Numbered from the stretch's first letter, positions 2,987-25,743 are shown. The stretch is 64,000 nucleotides of DNA from Candidatus Doudnabacteria bacterium (GCA_041644975.1 JBAZQX010000007.1:1906-65905), one strand, 5' to 3'. The notes: a model not told the origin generated them from the sequence alone. Made by a program: numbers and translations.

Positions 2987-3967
2987 TCAACATTTTTTTG
3001 TTGCAATAACAATTAGCCCATGACCTCTACTGAAAATACGACCCATCCAGTATATAATCGTTAAAATTAAATCGATCAAAAATCCATGCCGGCATTCGGC
3101 GTATTTAAAACGTTTCCATAAAAGGGAGTCGGGGAAAAAATTCAGAGCCTTAAAACCAGAGCTATCTAACATTTTAGTTAATGATTTTTTATTAAAAAAG
3201 AATCTATGATCCGCATGGTATAAATAAAACAGAGGAAATCGGAGCCTGCCAAACGATAATCTAAAAAGCAATATTGAAATCTTAAAAAATAAAGAGTCCG
3301 CATTTGGCGTGCGTATGATCATAACTTTCCCATATCCAACTGCAGAATTGAGCCGTTTTAAATCACTTAAAGGATCTTTGCAATGTTCAATAACATCCCA
3401 TGCTGTAATAATGTCGTATTTGCAGTCAGTTAGAACTTTCGAATCTGCAATTGAAGCATTTTCAATAAAGTCTGCTCCTAAATTCAATCTTTGCCTTGCA
3501 ATGCTACATGCATAGCTTGAGACATCTAATCCACTAACTTCATATCCCTCTTTTCTTGCTATCTCCATAAATATACCTGTCGAACAACCAACATCCAAAA
3601 GCCTTCCATGAGAAATATATTTTTTCACCATACGAATCCGTTTGTAAGACTGCTCTTCAACGCCGCTCTTTGCATCATTGCCTAATTTACCTGCCATCAT
3701 ATCGTGATATGTTTTACTATACAGCATATCATTTGTATTTATATTCGTTTCTCCTGAATCAACAAATTGTAATTCACAATGTTGGCACTTAAATATTTTT
3801 CGGCTTTCGAATGTTACACCCCAACTTGATTTAACATCGGCTTGGGGTTTTAAATCTAAAAACGAATTCACAGGCCCTTTACCACAGGCAAGGCATATAC
3901 GCCCCTGCCTGTCCCTTATTAACTCTGTGCGTTGTCTCTTTGGTTTATTGGTAGTCATAATATCCAC
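2987..3967 (-). CDS. Class I SAM-dependent methyltransferase with N-terminal Cys4 zinc ribbon
   Basis: LLDVGCSTGIF motif I. CLACG...CQHCE zinc ribbon. Confidence 0.75.
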   Translation of the reverse strand: MDIMTTNKPKRQRTELIRDRQGRICLACGKGPVNSFLDLKPQADVKSSWGVTFESRKIFKCQHCELQFVDSGETNINTNDMLYSKTYHDMMAGKLGNDAKSGVEEQSYKRIRMVKKYISHGRLLDVGCSTGIFMEIARKEGYEVSGLDVSSYACSIARQRLNLGADFIENASIADSKVLTDCKYDIITAWDVIEHCKDPLSDLKRLNSAVGYGKVMIIRTPNADSLFFKISILLFRLSFGRLRFPLFYLYHADHRFFFNKKSLTKMLDSSGFKALNFFPDSLLWKRFKYAECRHGFLIDLILTIIYWMGRIFSRGHGLIVIATKKC

Positions 3968-4279
3968 TATGAATCCAATTTCTGGGCAATTATATCAATA
4001 GACCCGTTAGAAATGGGAATTAAAATTTGTATTTTTTCAAAGCCAAAAGAAAAGGTTGATAACCACTTTGTCCAGGGATAAACATACGCCAGGCGGTCGA
4101 TGAGAAACGAGAGTGTTACCCAATTTCTGCTAATGACATCTCCTTTTCTTTATTTGCTTTTTGCCATACTCCGCACATCTTACATCTAAGGTTGCATCTT
4201 TCAGTCACATAAAAAATGTACATAGAATTGGGTTAAAAATAACCTTGACATTAGCAGACCTTTAGCAATTTTAAAAAAT

Positions 4280-5758: not shown

Positions 5759-6031
5759 TTATCTCACGAGCGAAGAGATATAAAACACGATTGGTTTTGA
5801 ACCCATTTCTGAAATTCTTTTTTTTCTTACGCCAAATATATAGTAAATTCTTTCTATTCTTGCTGAGTTTGGAAATTGTTTTAGAATATCAAATAAGACC
5901 TTATATCCACGCATTTCGAATTTACCCTCATTTTTCAAAAAATTTTTTGCAAAATTTGTTTTTCCTCCAAAAAATCCTGACATTAAATCTTCATGCTTAA
6001 ATCTGCTCAAAAGCAGGCGAATTTTTCCCAT
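5759..6031 (-). CDS. Hypothetical protein (possibly a gene remnant)
   Basis: ORF only; no recognisable motif. Confidence 0.3.
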   Translation of the reverse strand: MGKIRLLLSRFKHEDLMSGFFGGKTNFAKNFLKNEGKFEMRGYKVLFDILKQFPNSARIERIYYIFGVRKKRISEMGSKPIVFYISSLVR

Positions 6032-10895: not shown

Positions 10896-11231
10896 TGCCG
10901 GGGGAGAGAATCGGACTCTCGACACGATGATTTTCCATTGCTCTCTCGGATTTCTCCGAGGATTGGACTATCTCTTCTCCTCACCTAGAAATAACAAATT
11001 CTCTTTAGGTGAGGGGCTGGGCGCTTAATGCAGGATTATTATTGGGATTCACCCGCTAGTCTCTACACCTTCTCCTCTAATTAAACCCATAAAGGAGCTT
11101 GGCTCGGGATTACCATATCCCTTTGAATAAAAGGATTTAGGCTTCCCCGAATTCACCCAGTTTGCGCTTCCATATCGCTATGAAAGGGACCGAAAATTCA
11201 GTCATCTGCTCTACCACTGAGCTACCCCGGC
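10896..11231 (-). tRNA. tRNA-Phe(GAA) interrupted in the anticodon loop by a ~264-nt group I intron
   Basis: 5' exon GCCGGGGTAGCTCAGTGGTAGAGCAGATGACT; 3' exon GAAAATCATCGTGTCGAGAGTCCGATTCTCTCCCCCGGCA. Joined, they give a canonical Phe tRNA with GATGA/TCATC anticodon stem, loop CTGAAAA and A73. Confidence 0.7.
10936..11199 (-). ncRNA. Group I intron within tRNA-Phe (boundaries +/-3 nt because of GAA repeats at both junctions)
   Basis: Contains an R-like element (gtagAGACTAgcgg) and an S-like element (aagAGATAGTCCaatcc) that can pair as P7. The 5' exon ends in U and the intron ends in G. Confidence 0.6.
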
Positions 11232-18263: not shown

Positions 18264-18424
18264 ACTCAAGTCGTCAGTGGACTCAACGAGCACCACGGGC
18301 TTTTTTTGAAAAAATTAAAAAGGACCCAAATTTAAAATAAAAAAATTATAAAAAATTTCTTTCTGGCGGAGCCAGATACGCCTTGCTAGACGATATTGCG
18401 ACCTAAGAAGCAATTTCTCCTGTT

Positions 18425-18525
18425 GGTTCAATTCTCCCTGCCCACTCAAGCGCTTCGCCCGCCCGCAACGACTGCGTCTTGCGCTGTCGGGCGAGGCTTC
18501 AGGCGAGGCGGGCGGGTTGAATTGA
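18425..18525. repeat. Family B GC-rich repeat copy
   Basis: gcttcgcccgcccgcaacg...gcttcaggcgaggcgggcggg. Confidence 0.6.
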
Positions 18526-18583
18526 ACTAGATATTTCTGCAAAAAATTTTGGTTCAGGTTAGGAGACCTGAATCAACGAAAGG

Positions 18584-18931
18584 CTAAATCTTAATTTCTT
18601 CACCACAGCCTACCAATTTAGCCTCTCCATTTCTGACAAGAATTGCCTGTTCATCTGTAAGTATTTTAACCGGATACTTTGAAGTTGAAATTTTCCGCTT
18701 AAGAACTGGGGCATATTCTGGCTTAAAATGTACTGACAGCAGAAAGGGCACTAAGTTTAAAGCTCTCAAATCGGTTAATCCGAATGTATTTCTATCTGGA
18801 TGTTTCCAATACGCCATTTCTATGGTGGGGCAAGCGATACAACTTCCCGCGCTGGCGCCAATATAAATAACACCTTTTAAAATAAGCTCCTTCACAACCT
18901 TATCAAAGCCGCTCTCTCTAACGCATTTCAA
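18584..18931 (-). pseudogene. Peptidase E (S51 dipeptidase) C-terminal portion, separated from its N-terminal part by a palindromic element insertion
   Basis: In the upstream frame, DIIYVQGGNTFYLLK...VIYIGASAGSCIACPT matches PepE IVGGGNTFQLLK...GWSAGANLACPT. Confidence 0.6.
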
Positions 18932-18987
18932 TAAATAAAAAGTATTTCCGCCTTGGACATAAATAATATCCTTATCGCCAAGCAGCC

Positions 18988-19022
18988 TCCTTAAGGATGT
19001 CGTTCGCGAACGACATCCTTAA
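18988..19022. repeat. 35-bp perfect palindrome TCCTTAAGGATGTCGTTCGCGAACGACATCCTTAA (family E), copy 1, inside the peptidase E gene
   Basis: Exact palindrome; identical copy at 19195-19229. Confidence 0.85.
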
Positions 19023-19194
19023 TTCATCCTCGTTCTTGCCCTCAATATCAATTTCTTGCACATGGAATCCAACATCAGCCATTATTTGGCTGTCTTTTTT
19101 AACATAAGAAATGTCATCCTCGGCTTTTGAAGCAGTAGTAATATGGGCGAGTTTTATTTGATTAGCTGGTCTAGGGAGAAGTTTCAAAATTTCT

Positions 19195-19229
19195 TCCTTA
19201 AGGATGTCGTTCGCGAACGACATCCTTAA
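19195..19229. repeat. 35-bp perfect palindrome (family E), copy 2, read through in frame
   Basis: Identical to copy 1. Confidence 0.85.
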
Positions 19230-19381
19230 CATTTTCATACCAGCAGAGGTTAACAGTAGTGTTTTCATAATCTAATGCGAAACTATTTTTCAAAATATTA
19301 ATTGGCTTGCATTGAGGCTCCACAGGGCTATCGCCACTATGGAGCCAACAAATTTAGCTAAGTATGAAGCTGGTGCGCCGG

Positions 19382-20803
19382 CTAATACTTTGTATTTACA
19401 TAATATCCATGTCTACCTCCGCACCTATAGCCATTTTTATCTTTGTGTTCTCGAATACTACTATCGTGTTTAGTCTTGGTAAATTTTCTTCCACAATAAC
19501 TACATTGATAAATATATTTTGGCCCAAACGACGAAGCTCGCGAAATTCGACTAGACGATCTCATTATACCAGAATTTCTTCGGGAACGTGGGGCGGGTGT
19601 TGGTCTATTCGGGTCAAAAAGATAAGGATTCTCAGGTGTTTCTCCTGCTTTTGATAATTCTATCGGATATTGTGGTGCAAATTTTTCTTCTGTATTTTCT
19701 ATAGATTCAATTCTTTCCGCAATAAAACATCTAACGCCGGGCTTATTTTCTCCACCGCTTCGGTTATAAACATAAAAATATTCTCGCTCTACTCCGTCTT
19801 TGCGTTGAAGATATTTCAAGGAATATGGCTCAACTATTCTATCTGCCCCTTTGTAACGAATTTTTAAGAGCGTCTGTTTTCTGCCAGCTTCCATAATAGG
19901 CACTCTCAGTTCTGGACCAAAATATGCAAACTGCATAAATCCATTATCAGGATAAATTCCAAATAAACTTTCAATATCAGAAAGAAAAATAGTTATAGCT
20001 TCATCTACTCCAAATATAAACTCTTTAGCGCAAACAACTGTCTTATCCCAATATTTTTTAAAATAATCGAATGGTGTCTTGTGTAAAATATTTTTTAGTA
20101 CATGGGGATTTCTCCCGAAAATTGTCTTTTGTACAAAAGCTTTAACGACTTCCTCTTTGTTTAGCTCTCCACCTAAAAGCTTAACGGAATAGACATAATC
20201 AAATAAATCGGGCGGGTGTTGTCGCTGTAAAAGGCATTTGAGTTTTGTGGCGATAATTTCTTCAAGTTTCATACATCGTATTTCGCACGCTACTTCATTA
20301 GCGTCCGAATACGGATGAATTAACCTAACTGTTTGTAACGGTAATAGGACTTTATCAAAACGGGTGATGTCCATTGAAATTCTGATTTTTATATAATCAG
20401 ATCTTCCATAAAAGTCTTTGAAATAAATTCGAGCTTCATAAACACGCAAGTCAGGTATCGGGGCTTCAGAAGCTAAAAATTTTTCTTCAATTTTATTATC
20501 GTCTTTTACAAAAGACACACCCGCTTTTTCTTGAATAAAATCACAAACTTTGTTGATTTCATCAAGTAAAACATTTTTTTCTATATCATTGGGAATACCA
20601 AAGTCTAAGTCAGATGAGAAGCGAGTATTTTTGAAATACCCCTTACGTAACGCATTCCCGCCTTTCAAAAAAATGGTTTCCTTGAGGTTGCTTGTTGTAA
20701 AAATTCCAAAAATTAGCCAACCAAAAACATAATCACGCTCGACATTGGCTTCGTGGATTTCAAATTCTTTTGCTTTTGATTCAATTTCATCTTTTTGAAT
20801 CAT
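19382..20803 (-). CDS. AbiEii/AbiGii-type nucleotidyltransferase (DUF1814-like) fused to a WYL-like domain and a C-terminal Cys/His zinc-finger-like tail
   Basis: N-terminal FLKGGNALRKGY...SSDLDF nucleotidyltransferase motifs. LLKIRYKGADRIVEPYSLKY...EYFYVYNRSG...GVRCFIAERIES has a WYL-like pattern. The tail is YQCSYCGRKFTKTKHDSSIREH. The start overlaps the upstream gene's stop (ATGA). Confidence 0.7.
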   Translation of the reverse strand: MIQKDEIESKAKEFEIHEANVERDYVFGWLIFGIFTTSNLKETIFLKGGNALRKGYFKNTRFSSDLDFGIPNDIEKNVLLDEINKVCDFIQEKAGVSFVKDDNKIEEKFLASEAPIPDLRVYEARIYFKDFYGRSDYIKIRISMDITRFDKVLLPLQTVRLIHPYSDANEVACEIRCMKLEEIIATKLKCLLQRQHPPDLFDYVYSVKLLGGELNKEEVVKAFVQKTIFGRNPHVLKNILHKTPFDYFKKYWDKTVVCAKEFIFGVDEAITIFLSDIESLFGIYPDNGFMQFAYFGPELRVPIMEAGRKQTLLKIRYKGADRIVEPYSLKYLQRKDGVEREYFYVYNRSGGENKPGVRCFIAERIESIENTEEKFAPQYPIELSKAGETPENPYLFDPNRPTPAPRSRRNSGIMRSSSRISRASSFGPKYIYQCSYCGRKFTKTKHDSSIREHKDKNGYRCGGRHGYYVNTKY

Positions 20804-22200
20804 TGACTTTGCTGATTAGCTTCATTGGCTTTGGCTATGGCCTGTATGTAATATAAAAGACGTAAGTTATACAACTCGGCTGCTTTTTCATTGATTTCAC
20901 CCCAATTATCAAATAAATCACCGACTGGCCTTTGGTCTTTTCCTGGATTATCTTCAAATTTTTTCGAATAATCAATTCTAATCTTTAAGGCTGGATGAGA
21001 ATCATAAACGTTGTGTATTTGACTCCTTGAAAGAATATTATTTTGAAATTCTTCAATATCTTTTTTATTTAAACTCTTGAAAACGACCTCCATGAATTTC
21101 GAAAAATTTGAAATAGTTTTTTCTTCTTTCAATAATCCTGGTACATATTTTGACTGAATTATTTCACTAAATATTGTATCGTTCATAGCAATTTTTAATA
21201 ATCCATTTCCGAATGCTTTACCGCCATACATTTGCATCGCCATTATATCAGCCATAACTTCTCTAATTCTTGAAAAACCATTTGTTATTTTAAAATATAG
21301 CTTTACGTACAAAAGTAAAAGCCAATAGGCAGGATTAAGCATCATCATAAAGCGAACCAAGCCGCCCTTTTCTTTTTCATCTTGTGATGGACCGGGCATA
21401 GAATGCAAAGTATTTATTAAGGAATTGCCCATCAAATATGTATAAGAACTCCACGAGGTATCACGGTTACTAAAATGTCCATATTCATGGGCAAGTATCG
21501 CTCTAAATTCATCAACTGTTAAATCATATAAAGAAGATAAGCCGATTTCTAAAACCCTTTCACCACCACCGAAAATTGTTGAAAACAAATTACCCTGCAA
21601 ATAAACACCTATTCCAGGGTCAGGAGTAATGATTATTTTATCAATCGGCTTTGCCTTAATTTCTTTGGCAATTTCTTTTGTTAAATTCCAAAGCTCTTTC
21701 TGTTCATTTTCGATAATAGTAATCCCGGAGGTTTTTCGTTTGGGTGGAAAAAATAAATAATAAAAACCGATTAAAATAGCGATACCCGTTCCAATTGCTA
21801 CAACGGCAAGACCAATTAAAATCCCTATGGGTACACGCTCCAAATTAGAAATAAGCATCAAACCATAAAGCGCGAAATCAATTGCGGCAAAAAGTGCTAA
21901 AACTAAAAGATAAAAAAGAAAAGGAAGTAAAGTGATTAGCAAAAGACCAAAGGTTCGAAGTAGCCCTTTGTCGTCAAATAACTCTTTCTTTTTCCCGTCC
22001 AGAAAATTTTGTACAGAATTATTAAATTTTTTATCTAAAGAGCCACCGACCGCTCTGACAATAAGATAAATAATTAAGGCAACAACAATATAGAGTAAAA
22101 GGTCTTGATAATTAAAAGATATGGAGGTGAAATTAGAAAGTATCAAAAATCCAAATACAATGGTTAGAAATAGTGAAAATAATAAGGCGATGGTTTTCAT
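20800..22200 (-). CDS. Membrane-anchored M48 family zinc metalloprotease (HExxH)
   Basis: Four to five N-terminal TM helices and the AHEYGHF zinc-binding motif. Translationally coupled to the downstream nucleotidyltransferase gene. Confidence 0.8.
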   Translation of the reverse strand: MKTIALLFSLFLTIVFGFLILSNFTSISFNYQDLLLYIVVALIIYLIVRAVGGSLDKKFNNSVQNFLDGKKKELFDDKGLLRTFGLLLITLLPFLFYLLVLALFAAIDFALYGLMLISNLERVPIGILIGLAVVAIGTGIAILIGFYYLFFPPKRKTSGITIIENEQKELWNLTKEIAKEIKAKPIDKIIITPDPGIGVYLQGNLFSTIFGGGERVLEIGLSSLYDLTVDEFRAILAHEYGHFSNRDTSWSSYTYLMGNSLINTLHSMPGPSQDEKEKGGLVRFMMMLNPAYWLLLLYVKLYFKITNGFSRIREVMADIMAMQMYGGKAFGNGLLKIAMNDTIFSEIIQSKYVPGLLKEEKTISNFSKFMEVVFKSLNKKDIEEFQNNILSRSQIHNVYDSHPALKIRIDYSKKFEDNPGKDQRPVGDLFDNWGEINEKAAELYNLRLLYYIQAIAKANEANQQSQ

Positions 22201-22240
22201 AAATTATTTTCGGTTATGTAATTTTTATTACACATTAATA

Positions 22241-22654
22241 CTATTTGAATGGATCTGGCATCCCAGATTCATCTACAAAGAGTTTGTGAACTTGTTTTTG
22301 TAGCTTCCGATGAATGTCTGCCTTAATAGTGGGGTCATTATAACCCTTAACCACTACACTCATCTTTTCTGCAACCTCATCCATGTTTTTGCAAGGTAAA
22401 ATATAGCGTACAACAGCTTCTAGAAGAGAACCGTTAATACCAATTTGTTCAATACGCACACAGAAAAAATCAAGAAACTCACTCATATCGTGTTTGAAAA
22501 TATTTCCCGTAGGTATCATTCCTCCAAAAGTAAGTTTAAGAATAGCTATCTCGGTTTGCGTAAAGGAAACGAGGATGCGCTTGCCGTCATCCAATCGGAT
22601 TTGAGAAAATGTTCCGCTCGGTTTTCTATCTGAAAAATTGATTATCTTGCTCAT
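22241..22654 (-). CDS. Hypothetical protein (137 aa), first gene of the M48 / NTase-WYL operon
   Basis: ORF on the same strand, 40 nt upstream of the M48 gene. Confidence 0.5.
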   Translation of the reverse strand: MSKIINFSDRKPSGTFSQIRLDDGKRILVSFTQTEIAILKLTFGGMIPTGNIFKHDMSEFLDFFCVRIEQIGINGSLLEAVVRYILPCKNMDEVAEKMSVVVKGYNDPTIKADIHRKLQKQVHKLFVDESGMPDPFK

Positions 22655-22810
22655 AGTTTTATTTAATTAAATCATCAACCTTAACATCTAACGCTTTGGC
22701 GATTTTGTAAAATTCCTGCTGGTCCACCCCGTTAGAAAATTTATAAAATCTTCAACGGGTTTTTATAATATCAAAAAATAAAAATTATTCTTATGCCTTT
22801 ATTTGATTTT

Positions 22811-22882
22811 TCTAACGGGGTGGACCGAGTGGGAATTGAACCCACGACCTCCTCATTGCAAATGAGGCGTTCTACCACTGAA
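22811..22882 (-). tRNA. tRNA-Ala(TGC)
   Basis: GGGCCGG acceptor with the G3:U70 identity pair, anticodon loop TTTGCAA and T-arm GTGGGTTCAATTCCCAC. Confidence 0.85.
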
Positions 22883-22916
22883 CTACCGGCCCTTGGGATT
22901 TATTCTTGATAATTTT

Positions 22917-23089: not shown

Positions 23090-23477
23090 GTTTATAAAAT
23101 TAAACACTCTGTCGCGCTCTCGCACGACCTCCTTGTGTCAAGCTTTCGCTTGACCTCCTTAATTCATTTCAAAATTCTTTGCTGTTATTATAACTAAAAA
23201 AGACCCTTTAAACAAGGTTCTTTTTTTATCCGCAAAGGAGCTTTCCTTTGGCAATTAAACAGTGATAGGAAACATCTTAGAATTTAAAACACATTTTGTT
23301 TTAAAACGCCGTGTTTTAAGTTAACCACTACCGTGTGGCTTTTTTAGCGTTTGTTTGATAACAGTATCCCTTGCGAGATACCGCGACAATATTTTTCTCC
23401 CTAGAAAGGAGGTGATCCATCGACAGCTTCCGCTACCGATGCCTTGTTACGACTTCGTCCTAATTACCGATCCTACC

Positions 23478-23945
23478 GTGGATCCACCAAAAGGCGGAAC
23501 TTCGGGTATTACCGGCTCTTCTGACGTGACGGGCGATTATCTTCTTATAAACGTAAGAATTGATGTTCCCACCCAGCGAGCGGATTTCCCGCACTAGGCG
23601 AGTTCTAATGCATTTTCTTCTTCATTAGAATGGCTCCTTTCCCCATACTCGGGGTATTATGAGCCAGCTGACTTCTGACGCTGCGTTAGTTTTATTATAT
23701 AACTCGATTGAGTTAAACCGCAACATCAGATCTCCCGGGGTCAGTTTAAAAACTTTTCCTAACATCCCAAAGAAGCTTTTATATAATTTTCCCTATGCTC
23801 ACCACCCTACCATAGGTCAATTAACTTCTTTAATTTTTGGGCTGCTATTTGTTTCCGGATCCTCTGCTAACATCCTCGCGGATGTTAACTATCCTTCAAC
23901 TACGCTCTAAACGAGATTAGAGGGACGGATTTTAACCGTCTGGTT
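23478..23945 (-). other. ~430-470-nt insertion in the 16S rRNA between the GTAC(A)C 1395 block and the CGCCCGTCA 1400 block
   Basis: The conserved blocks are ~490 nt apart here versus fewer than 100 in canonical 16S. No sense-strand ORF of 60 aa or more. Confidence 0.6.
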
Positions 23946-24443
23946 TTTAAACCTGCCCGGCGCAGATTTTGTGAGTACAAGACCTGGGAACGTATTCACC
24001 GCGACATGGCTGATTCGCGGTTACTAGCGATTCCGGCTTCATGAGGTCGAGTTGCAGACCTCAATCCGAACTGGGGGTGCTTTTGATGGGATTAGCTATA
24101 GCGTTACCGCGTCGCGTCCCATTGTTACACCCATTGTAGCACGTGTGTCGCCCAGGGCATCAAAGGCCATGCTGACTTGACGTCGTCCCCACCTTCCTCC
24201 GACTATCTGCCGGCAGTCTCGCGTGACATAGTAACACGCGACAGGGGTTGCGTTCATTCCCGGACTTAACCGAACATCTCACGACATGAACTGACGACAG
24301 CCATGCAGCACCTGATCCCAAGGTTCCCCCCATAAAAAATCCAATTTTTAATTTTAAATTTTTAATTGAATTCCTTATGGGGGCACATCTCAGTTTCCTA
24401 AGATCTCCTTGAGCGTCTTGCCCTGGTAAGGTTCCTCGCTTAC

Positions 24444-24477
<34 letters not shown>

Positions 24478-24489
24478 AGGTCCCCGTCT

Positions 24490-24521
<32 letters not shown>

Positions 24522-24954
24522 TCCCAGGCGGGGCACTTAACGCGTTAGCTTACGACACTGAAGGGGTCGAGCCTCCAATGCCTAGTGCCCATCGTTTACA
24601 GCGTGGACTACTGGGATATCTAACCCCATTCGCTCCCCACGCTTTCGTCCTATGAGCGTCAGAATCGTTCTAGTAAGCTGCCTTCGCTATTGGTGTTCCT
24701 GCCGATATTAACGCATATCACTACTACACCGGCAGTTCCGCTTACTTCTCCCGACCTCTAGTCTTGAAAGTATCCAACCCTTTCCCTTGGTTAAGCCAAG
24801 GTCTTTAAGGTTAGACTTTTCAGACCGCCTAGGGACGCTTTACGCCCAATAAATCCGGATAACGCTTGGACCACTCGAATTACCGCGACTGCTGGCACGA
24901 GTTTAGTCGGTCCTTATTCGTAGGGTACCTTCAAACGTGCCTCGCTACCGCTCG

Positions 24955-25200
24955 GCACTAAATATAAATTTACAATTTTTAATTTTAAATTTTAATTCAA
25001 ATCCAAATTTTAAAATTGATTAAAAATTTCCGCCTGAAGAGCGGATCGGCTCTTCGACTCTGAAGACTCATTAGAGTTCGTTCAGAGCCTGAACAACCTA
25101 AACGACCTAGGGCTGAAAAAATTTAGAATTAAAAATTTACAGAGTGCTGAACGTAAGTGAAGCACGTCTTATTCCCCTATAAAAGCAGTTTACACTGAAG
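24955..25200 (-). other. ~240-nt AT-rich insertion in the 16S rRNA between the 357 and 515 conserved blocks (V3 region)
   Basis: Spacing of ~400 nt versus ~160 nt in canonical 16S. Confidence 0.5.
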
Positions 25201-25743
25201 AACAGCTTCTTCCTGCACGCGGCGTCGCTCCTTCACCCTTTTGGGGCATTGAGGAAGATTCTCGACTGCAGCCTCCCGTAGGAGTCAGGGCAGTGTTTCA
25301 GTCCCCGTGTGCGAGGGCATCCTCTTAGACCTCGTAACCGTCATAGCCTTGGTGAGCCTTTACCCCACCAACTAGCTGATAGTCCGCAGGCCCTTCTTGA
25401 AGCGATAAATCATTTACCATAACTAATGAATAGCTATGGCACATCGGGAATTAGTCCGCCTTTCGGCGAATTATGCCCGTCTTCAAGGTAGGTTACCAAC
25501 GTGTTACTCACCCGTTTGCCACTGTCCGCCTAACTTTTCTTGCGAAAAGTTTGGCGGACCGTTGACTTGCATGCCTTATCCACGCCGCCAGCGTTCATCC
25601 TGAGCTAGGATCAAACTCTCAAAAAAGATAATCAGCAATTAGCTCATAAAAGCTAGATTACTAATTATATAAATAGACGTTCCTATCACTATTTAATTGT
25701 CAAAGTTCAAAAATATTTTTGCTCTTAAACTAGAGCATAATTT

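Follow-up and report, generated by a model that had tools for sequence, protein, structure and literature searches.

An AbiEii-type nucleotidyltransferase fused to WYL and CCHC modules, and its neighbours in a low-GC block beside tRNA-Ala of a Candidatus Doudnabacteria bacterium

Results

The three genes of the locus

The window analysed here is a stretch of 64,000 nucleotides from a Candidatus Doudnabacteria bacterium (GCA_041644975.1 JBAZQX010000007.1:1906-65905), with positions counted from its first letter. Three of its minus-strand genes are our subject. The first (19382-20803), recognized from the open reading frame (ORF), Pfam, PADLOC and homologs, encodes a 473-residue long-form AbiEii/DUF1814 protein in which a nucleotidyltransferase (NTase) core is followed by a WYL domain and a CCHC zinc finger. 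The second (20800-22200; ORF, Pfam and a protein family of its own) encodes a 466-residue polytopic, HtpX-like M48 metalloprotease, which is a neighbour and not a conserved partner of the NTase. The third (22241-22654; ORF and 51 homologs) encodes P137, a 137-residue orphan protein that acts as a conserved 'leader' with variable downstream partners. Each has many full-length homologs, and we therefore take all three to be real genes and not chance ORFs. An earlier note on this DNA had read them as one defence or toxin operon. Its description of the layout agrees with the coordinates: the genes are tightly packed and co-directional on the minus strand beside a tRNA/16S cluster, the M48 stop codon overlaps the NTase start codon in caATGAtt, and P137 and M48 are separated by 40 nt. 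The block has a GC content of 0.33–0.38, against a window mean of 0.42, and is among the lowest-GC stretches of the window; values below 0.35 are confined to it and to 3–5 kb. Scans for sigma-70 promoters and terminators across the block gave results no better than shuffled sequences, and no integrase flanks the island in the window. We lean towards reading the block as an accessory island of low GC content, next to tRNA-Ala, with two independent units in it and not one operon-encoded system.

The NTase protein

The domain identities of the proteins of the locus are, in our judgement, nearly certain. Pfam AbiEii (PF08843) matches residues 30–232 of the 473-residue protein with 89.4 bits against a cutoff of 22.5 (4.4e-25), and PADLOC AbiEii matches it at 2.4e-49. 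An AlphaFold model built on 50 homologs (predicted local distance difference test score, pLDDT, of 77) was compared using Foldseek, which returned TglT/MenT3 (6j7o at 1.3e-8, 6j7r and 6j7s at ∼1e-8, probability 1.0) and MenT4 (6y56 at 4e-7). Profile matches and fold therefore both bear out the AbiEii/DUF1814 call. The core spans residues 1–256 (20036-20803, minus strand), as delimited by an alignment of 50 sequences and by Foldseek, and carries the pol-beta-type motif hG[GS]...D-x-D with the downstream Lys and R...D..D. Invariant among the 50 aligned sequences are GGNALRKG (including G48 and G49), S63, D65, D67, K179/K187/K189, R194, D199 and D202. The spacing S63-S-D65-L-D67 is that of S78/D80/D82 in MenT3, where S78 is the residue that is auto-phosphorylated under antitoxin action; S63 is thus a putative phosphoacceptor by alignment.

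Residues ∼297–383 (19655-19915, minus strand) are predicted to form one helix followed by a five-strand Sm-like barrel, resembling solved WYL domains. The R322.VEPY and GxRxF motifs are also invariant in the family alignment, and the motifs that had been quoted for the NTase and WYL regions are all present and conserved in this way. Pfam WYL gives no match to the window protein itself at E ≤ 1; PADLOC WYL matches residues 303–383 at 1.6e-4, and PF13280 is matched by 16 of the 53 relatives of the C-terminal module (best 41.7 bits, cutoff 21.8). The WYL assignment made from the sequence alone is supported by the PADLOC match, by the homologs that pass Pfam WYL and by the fold.

Beyond the WYL domain lies a basic, disordered and variable linker (residues 397–424; 19532-19615, minus strand; pLDDT <50), the sole poorly conserved stretch of the alignment, and then a zinc finger or ribbon (residues 429–473; 19385-19519, minus strand; pLDDT ∼90–95). 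Its ligands, spaced C434-x2-C437-x15-H453-x7-C461, are invariant, and all four are retained in a Rhizobium homolog of only 27% identity. The earlier note was right about a zinc finger in the tail and wrong about the C2H2 type: the last ligand is a Cys, not a His, giving CCHC, and H448, which that note had used, is not conserved. Profile matches to the tail are all below threshold (Zn_ribbon_SprT at 0.034 in Pfam; C2H2 fingers at E values of 0.08–1 in the PDB), as are the zf-BED matches at ∼6e-4 in six of the 53 relatives of the C-terminal module.

Distribution and conservation of the NTase family

More than 1379 homologs are 60–86% identical to the window NTase over the full length. A scan of GTDB (one genome per species, 185,579 species, six 8-residue query peptides) returned 48 NTase loci, in the same identity range over the full length except for one outlier at 28% (locus L048; loci are numbered in this way throughout). 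The family spans more than ten phyla. Among the hosts in GTDB are Saccharibacteria, Jorgensenbacteria, Parcubacteria, Gracilibacteria, Bdellovibrionales, Pirellulales, Bacteroidota, Ignavibacteria, Omnitrophota, Syntrophobacteraceae, Gamma- and Alphaproteobacteria, Verrucomicrobiota and Acidobacteriota, with one Bifidobacteriaceae bin and one Methanosarcinales bin in addition. The GC content of the gene correlates with that of the host (r = 0.76) and is usually the lower of the two, and GC at third codon positions (GC3) ranges from 0.18 to 0.73. That the protein stays 60–86% identical despite this range points to long residence in widely differing genomes under very strong purifying selection, and not merely to recent transfer.

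Selection of this strength would be explained if the protein were not a toxin but a conserved enzyme that modifies or repairs nucleic-acid ends in response to single-stranded DNA (ssDNA) or RNA. The identity kept across phyla at such divergent GC3 is in line with this, as are the missing antitoxin and the frequent response of WYL regulators to DNA damage. We nevertheless find such a role quite improbable: the distribution is patchy (48 loci from the whole scan with its six peptides), the gene sits in variable regions, all of the catalytic motifs match the toxin clade and close architectural relatives pair with AbiEi.

Relatives with and without AbiEi

A tblastn search with two AbiEi proteins over the 64-kb window found no AbiEi, as had been noted before. 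Full-length NTase homologs with the same three domains, at 38–41% identity and also without AbiEi, are present on plasmids of Sinorhizobium mexicanum (pEmeITTGR7a; WP_180941829.1) and Sphingomonas parapaucimobilis (WP_347092308.1). The more distant relatives differ. The 27% identical homolog, on Rhizobium sp. CB3171 plasmid pCB3171_2, has the NTase-WYL-CCHC architecture, and an AbiEi gene annotated upstream overlaps its own (WP_283054705.1/WP_283054706.1; L149 2223-4425), and in L048 (7150-9413) a canonical AbiEi overlaps a long AbiEii of the same architecture with 28% identity to the window NTase. Since the AbiEi-paired relatives also have the WYL-CCHC part, the fused sensor predates the loss of the antitoxin. 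The long three-domain AbiEii is, as judged from these comparisons, an old lineage, and the clade of the window a branch that lost its antitoxin.

A metagenomic protein of 478 residues (P0370) joins a TIR_2 domain (104–198) to a helical-plus-WYL module (270–434) that is 39% identical to residues 214–377 of the window protein; it has a basic tail without a zinc finger. This suggests that the helical-plus-WYL module can regulate other effectors.

Neighbourhoods of the NTase gene

All-versus-all clustering of 1317 neighbouring ORFs gave no partner shared across the NTase loci. The 34 same-strand upstream neighbours are heterogeneous (a Vut_1 transporter, Asp/Glu racemase, DUF6804 membrane proteins, RelA_SpoT, PD-(D/E)XK nucleases, ThiF and others); AbiEi is one of the 34, and the locus in which tblastn detected AbiEi is the L048 outlier. 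The same-strand genes downstream of the NTase belong to no common family. Two-gene blocks are found within sub-lineages, with either a DUF6804 protein (L007, L018 and L061) or a 217-residue transmembrane (TM) protein (L001, L020, L028 and L047) preceding the NTase. When two neighbours were taken on either side of the NTase, 150 in all, they included phage-type integrases, resolvases, type II methyltransferases, Mrr and type IV restriction enzymes, along with Shedu SduA, DISARM DrmMII, AbiU2, HerA, Nhi, RadC and TrwB. The NTase resides in variable regions of defence and mobile-element genes, without a fixed partner. Between the window and L061, DNA homology begins at the NTase ATG and stops 17 nt past the stop codon; the flanks gave no sign of a hidden antitoxin or noncoding RNA, with no conserved DNA shared with the window beyond those 17 nt.

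These contexts also bear on whether the NTase could be an ordinary toxin of the toxin–antitoxin (TA) type controlled in trans, by an unlinked antitoxin or by a host Ser/Thr phosphatase or kinase acting on Ser63. Its role would then be growth arrest under stress or stabilization of the island instead of defence against phage, and the WYL-CCHC part would mainly autoregulate transcription, as the winged helix–turn–helix (wHTH) of AbiEi does. Such control would suit the alignment of Ser63 with the MenT3 S78 phosphoacceptor and the reversibility of AbiEii phosphorylation by a host phosphatase; most WYL proteins are transcription factors, a CCHC or BED-like finger could bind DNA, and distant relatives retain AbiEi together with WYL. 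Against it stand the failure to detect AbiEi anywhere in the 64-kb window, the absence of a recurrent partner gene across the 48 loci and the defence and mobile-element functions among the neighbours, and we regard control in trans as unlikely.

A recurrent cluster of small proteins in 17 NTase loci, presumed to be helix–turn–helix (HTH) proteins, prompted the idea of an operon running from an XRE gene through cargo genes to the NTase, and close XRE homologs do lie upstream on the same strand in about seven NTase lineages. We keep this as a lead and not a finding, because these regions are rich in XRE genes (L061 by itself has three) and HTH proteins make up only one or two of the 34 immediate neighbours. 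A supposed cluster of convergent downstream genes was rejected when it proved to be translated noncoding DNA, and tRNA adjacency was rejected as a general signature of integration, a tRNA lying within 2.5 kb in only about five of 45 loci.

Some further features were seen at single loci or in a few lineages. In L061 (3902-6419 and 8104-11252) the NTase gene is the last of a tightly packed XRE-DnaJ-TPR-214aa-DUF6804-NTase array, and an N6/N4 methylase with a RAMA domain is nearby. In only five or six other lineages (L002 2485-2511, L003 3286-3312, L010 3477-3503, L017 3671-3697, L018 4526-4552 and, in part, L029), conserved noncoding DNA of ∼100–260 nt begins 33–60 nt past the NTase stop codon; it is absent from the window. 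Its core, GCGCACAGGGCGGGCGGGGCAAGCACA, is followed by repeated ...TACCAC... motifs and belongs to no Rfam family, and several of the contigs end soon after it. On an Omnitrophota contig (L014), two fluoride riboswitches (3907-3981 and 5914-5977) lie just downstream of the NTase and are probably unrelated to it.

The M48 protease and its relation to the NTase

The middle gene matches Pfam Peptidase_M48 (44 bits, cutoff 20.3; 2.8e-11). The protein has HEYGH at position 238, with H238, E239, H242 and E314 invariant, and hydropathy indicates about five TM segments, so that the description as a polytopic HExxH protease of the M48 type is sound. It scores far below the cutoff of the NCBIfam HtpX equivalog (32 bits against 285). 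Its 127 homologs, at 45–88% identity, form a separate family of ∼466 residues with a patchy distribution. In three M48 lineages that were inspected individually, the gene is flanked by ftsA, fpg, tRNA synthetases, L25, prmC/RF1 or unrelated genes, with neither AbiEii nor P137 as a neighbour. INPHARED contained no matches to M48 or P137, and a look for a phage origin in PHROGs yielded nothing of use.

The earlier note had proposed that M48, the NTase-WYL protein and P137 are co-transcribed as a signal-activated system, and conservation of the M48 pairing had been set beforehand as the test. Neighbourhood searches found essentially none. No M48 or P137 homolog was detected by tblastn near any of the 48 NTase loci, and the NTase is absent from 79 of 80 metagenomic M48 loci. 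The exception is L061, where the NTase is 84% identical in amino-acid sequence and 81% in nucleotide sequence to that of the window. There, M48 and the NTase gene are convergent and ∼320 bp apart, which means that they cannot form an operon in that contig; the L061 M48 also has an extra N-terminal zinc ribbon and is preceded by a zinc-ribbon membrane protein of its own. P137 is paired with M48 in just one lineage besides the window (L057/L058).

That the three genes are nevertheless one co-transcribed defence or toxin system, in which the membrane M48 would act on the WYL-NTase as a sensor or activator, or partner it in the manner of an antitoxin, is suggested by the ATGA overlap, typical of translational coupling, by the low-GC trough common to all three genes, by the neighbouring M48 and NTase homologs in L061 and by the succession of P137 and M48 in L057/L058, where a ThsB-like TIR gene is found two genes further on. 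It is hard to reconcile with the neighbourhood counts above, with the convergent arrangement and separate upstream partner of M48 in L061, with the three M48 lineages flanked by housekeeping or unrelated genes, or with the pairing of P137 elsewhere with unrelated proteins, and we consider it very improbable. We are confident that there is no functional link between M48 and the NTase; their ATGA overlap is a consequence of local gene packing. The adjacencies in the window and in L061 cannot stem from a common operon; it may be that both genes occupy variable islands of one type.

P137 and its partners

P137 has 51 metagenomic homologs, which are 62–83% identical, and no match that would indicate a function in Pfam, NCBIfam, PADLOC, PHROGs or a PDB profile search. 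As a rule its gene opens a closely spaced pair, and the second gene, which varies, follows after 2–40 nt (2–33 nt outside the window). The second gene encodes M48 in the window and in L057/L058, where it is only 38–46% identical to the window M48, 10-TM proteins in L141 and L146, and soluble proteins in L056 and L142. Three of these second-gene products, from L057, L141 and L146, have the first 13 residues, M(R/E)Q.NIRQKL, in common, the remainder being unrelated (M48 versus 10-TM).

This pattern raises the possibility that P137 and the gene after it form an independent two-gene cassette in which a conserved leader (a regulator, adaptor or immunity-like protein) is combined with effector or membrane partners that can be exchanged, among them M48, which would be unrelated to the NTase. 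The close identity within the family, the different second genes that follow it at short distance and the common N-terminus of three partners all fit. The same-strand partner is missing in L059/L060 and L144/L145, the profile searches give no functional clue and the pattern is drawn from about eight independent contexts, so that we hold such a cassette to be possible but rather doubtful. An OLD-like AAA_15/TOPRIM gene is found upstream of P137 in L056, the ThsB-like TIR gene mentioned above belongs to L057, and L143 goes with L142 among the P137 homolog loci.

The island border and other features of the window

Upstream of P137, positions 22659-22745 (minus strand) hold the 3' remnant of an XRE-type HTH gene with a truncated 5' end, ending ...EFYKIAKALDVKVDDLIK*. 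The remnant was recognized from its DNA match to L061, from its translation and using BLASTP: 48 nt match, at 83% identity, the 3' end of an intact XRE gene, the first gene of the L061 NTase operon, and 12 of 17 residues of the translation are identical. The tRNA-Ala(UGC) gene follows at 22819-22892 (minus strand). A 28-nt imperfect inverted repeat (86%; 22721-22748 and 22799-22826), corresponding to the 3' end and trailer of tRNA-Ala, marks the edge of the low-GC block. The point at which the XRE gene is truncated coincides with the inverted copy of the tRNA-Ala 3' end, which suggests a past rearrangement or integration scar at the island border.

The 16S rRNA gene (23919-25626, minus strand) is 1708 nt long for a model of 1533 positions, and is separated from tRNA-Ala by a spacer of ∼1 kb, within which 23405-23900 weakly resembles the 3' half of the small-subunit rRNA. 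No 23S gene follows the 16S gene in the window. A group I intron (10944-11209; 92.9 bits) has no rRNA match around it. On the other side of the block, a perfect 32-nt palindrome, TTAAGGATGTCGTTCGCGAACGACATCCTTAA, occurs in two identical copies (18991-19022 and 19198-19229), the only ones in the 64-kb window (none expected); both are insertions in a Peptidase_S51 gene, which is divided into ORFs at 18584-18931 and 18972-19268 (minus strand), and they resemble short palindromic insertion elements that end in TTAA. A GC-rich segment at ∼18367-18530 (plus strand) contains a tRNA-like T-arm, GGTTCAATTCTCCC, and a strong hairpin, CGCCCGCCCGC...GCGGGCGGG, and received no call from ARAGORN or Rfam; its T-arm and that of tRNA-Ala, 4.4 kb apart, are in inverted orientation.

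Discussion

We think it probable, if not strongly so, that the NTase of the window is a self-contained, antitoxin-less toxin of the AbiEii/MenT kind with the WYL domain and the CCHC finger built in, and that P137 and M48 are a separate unit. DUF1814 toxins extend the 3'-CCA ends of tRNA and block aminoacylation, and are neutralized by cognate antitoxins that induce auto-phosphorylation of an active-site Ser or Thr (PMC7450476; PMC10435456; PMC11375011; bioRxiv 10.64898/2026.01.19.700257). In CapW, PafBC and DriD the inducing signal is ssDNA, which is bound by the WYL domain (PMC11662680; PMC11804915; PMC12041258). Given this chemistry and this mode of sensing, we therefore propose a ligand-gated tRNA nucleotidyltransferase.

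In the first of the two units the NTase core would, by homology, add nucleotides to tRNA 3'-CCA ends and so stop translation, and the WYL domain and the CCHC finger would act in cis as sensor and nucleic-acid-binding module. The WYL domain, which would be of the kind known from DriD, PafBC, CapW and WYL1 to bind ssDNA or ssRNA, might hold the NTase inactive, with the basic linker and the finger supplying contacts to nucleic acid. Silencing could proceed through auto-phosphorylation of Ser63, the switch that antitoxins operate in MenT and AbiEii, and release would come when ssDNA or RNA builds up during phage replication or DNA damage. The second unit would consist of the P137 leader and M48, M48 being one of several alternative followers. 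A ligand-gated abortive-infection mechanism is plausible by analogy, while falling somewhat short of probable. We put forward more tentatively that the whole orphan clade is a one-protein immune sensor-effector in which the WYL domain, with the CCHC finger, gates a tRNA-modifying toxin in cis and replaces the lost AbiEi.

Several observations weigh against this picture. Conservation as strong as that found here is unusual for a toxin or defence gene, and the protein could have another role. The relatives at 27% identity keep AbiEi together with the WYL-CCHC tail, from which it follows that the WYL domain is no simple substitute for the antitoxin and that the module is an added sensing layer. 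The TIR-WYL protein P0370 is one metagenomic sequence only. Adjacency of M48 and the NTase in two unrelated contigs is more than would be expected of rare genes, and there may be a loose linkage within the shared type of island. The lack of NTase homologs in IMG/VR and in deposited phage genomes (INPHARED) is neutral in this respect.

The closest known systems are AbiE (AbiEi/AbiEii) and MenAT (MenA/MenT, TakA/TglT). Their toxins belong to the same NTase family by Pfam, PADLOC and fold, with the same catalytic motifs and phosphoacceptor position, and by analogy the addition of nucleotides to tRNA 3' ends would be expected of the window NTase too (PMC7450476; PMC10435456). Unlike them, the window NTase and its clade at 60–86% identity have no adjacent AbiEi or MenA (a COG5340-type wHTH), the gene upstream in the window being M48; the protein has ∼190 extra C-terminal residues, the WYL and CCHC parts, and its conservation across phyla far exceeds that of typical TA toxins. 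The long AbiEii of Rhizobium and L048 is identical in architecture, with a zinc tail nearly superimposable in sequence, but is only 27–28% identical and has kept the overlapping upstream AbiEi that the clade of the window lost. BrxR, CapW, PafBC and DriD (wHTH-WYL-WCX), and WYL1, the accessory protein of Cas13d, have an HTH at the N terminus and work as transcription factors or accessory proteins; in the window protein the WYL domain is joined directly to a toxin that is an enzyme, and the HTH is replaced by a zinc finger at the C terminus. With HtpX and other M48 proteases the window M48 shares the HExxH motif (HEYGH), the invariant downstream Glu, N-terminal TM helices and the Pfam match; it differs in scoring below the equivalog cutoff and in belonging to its own patchy family of ∼466 residues.

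The arrangement had been thought undescribed. In fact, Makarova, Anantharaman, Grishin, Koonin and Aravind listed an 'AbiGII-like nucleotidyltransferase (DUF1814)' among WYL-fused domains in 2014 and proposed ligand sensing for the regulation of Abi systems (PMC4012209), and NCBI names the window protein as a member of the AbiEii/AbiGii family, so that the DUF1814-WYL fusion is already known. The 2014 entry is a catalogue entry only, with no CCHC tail, antitoxin-less clade, conservation, contexts or experiments, and we found no paper characterizing the fusion in the literature searched. What remains is a hyper-conserved form of a known kind of toxin that has no antitoxin and carries a WYL sensor in cis.

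For annotation, the locus is a caution that tight packing and ATGA overlaps in the small genomes of the candidate phyla radiation (CPR) are not by themselves a sign of a functional operon. For the toxin family the consequences could be wider. All of the AbiE and MenT toxins studied need a cognate antitoxin that triggers inactivating auto-phosphorylation; a clade that has no antitoxin and carries a fused WYL domain would, if the proposal is right, keep such a toxin silent in a different way. The members from cultured hosts, on the Sinorhizobium and Sphingomonas plasmids, and the AbiEi-paired cousin from Rhizobium make the question testable at the bench. Work on WYL domains has to date dealt almost wholly with their control of transcription. 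Here, if the proposal is true, one would have a direct enzymatic output, and the NTase, maintained under exceptional constraint from the CPR to Proteobacteria, Bacteroidota and Acidobacteriota, would become the first demonstrated case of a toxin with a WYL switch.

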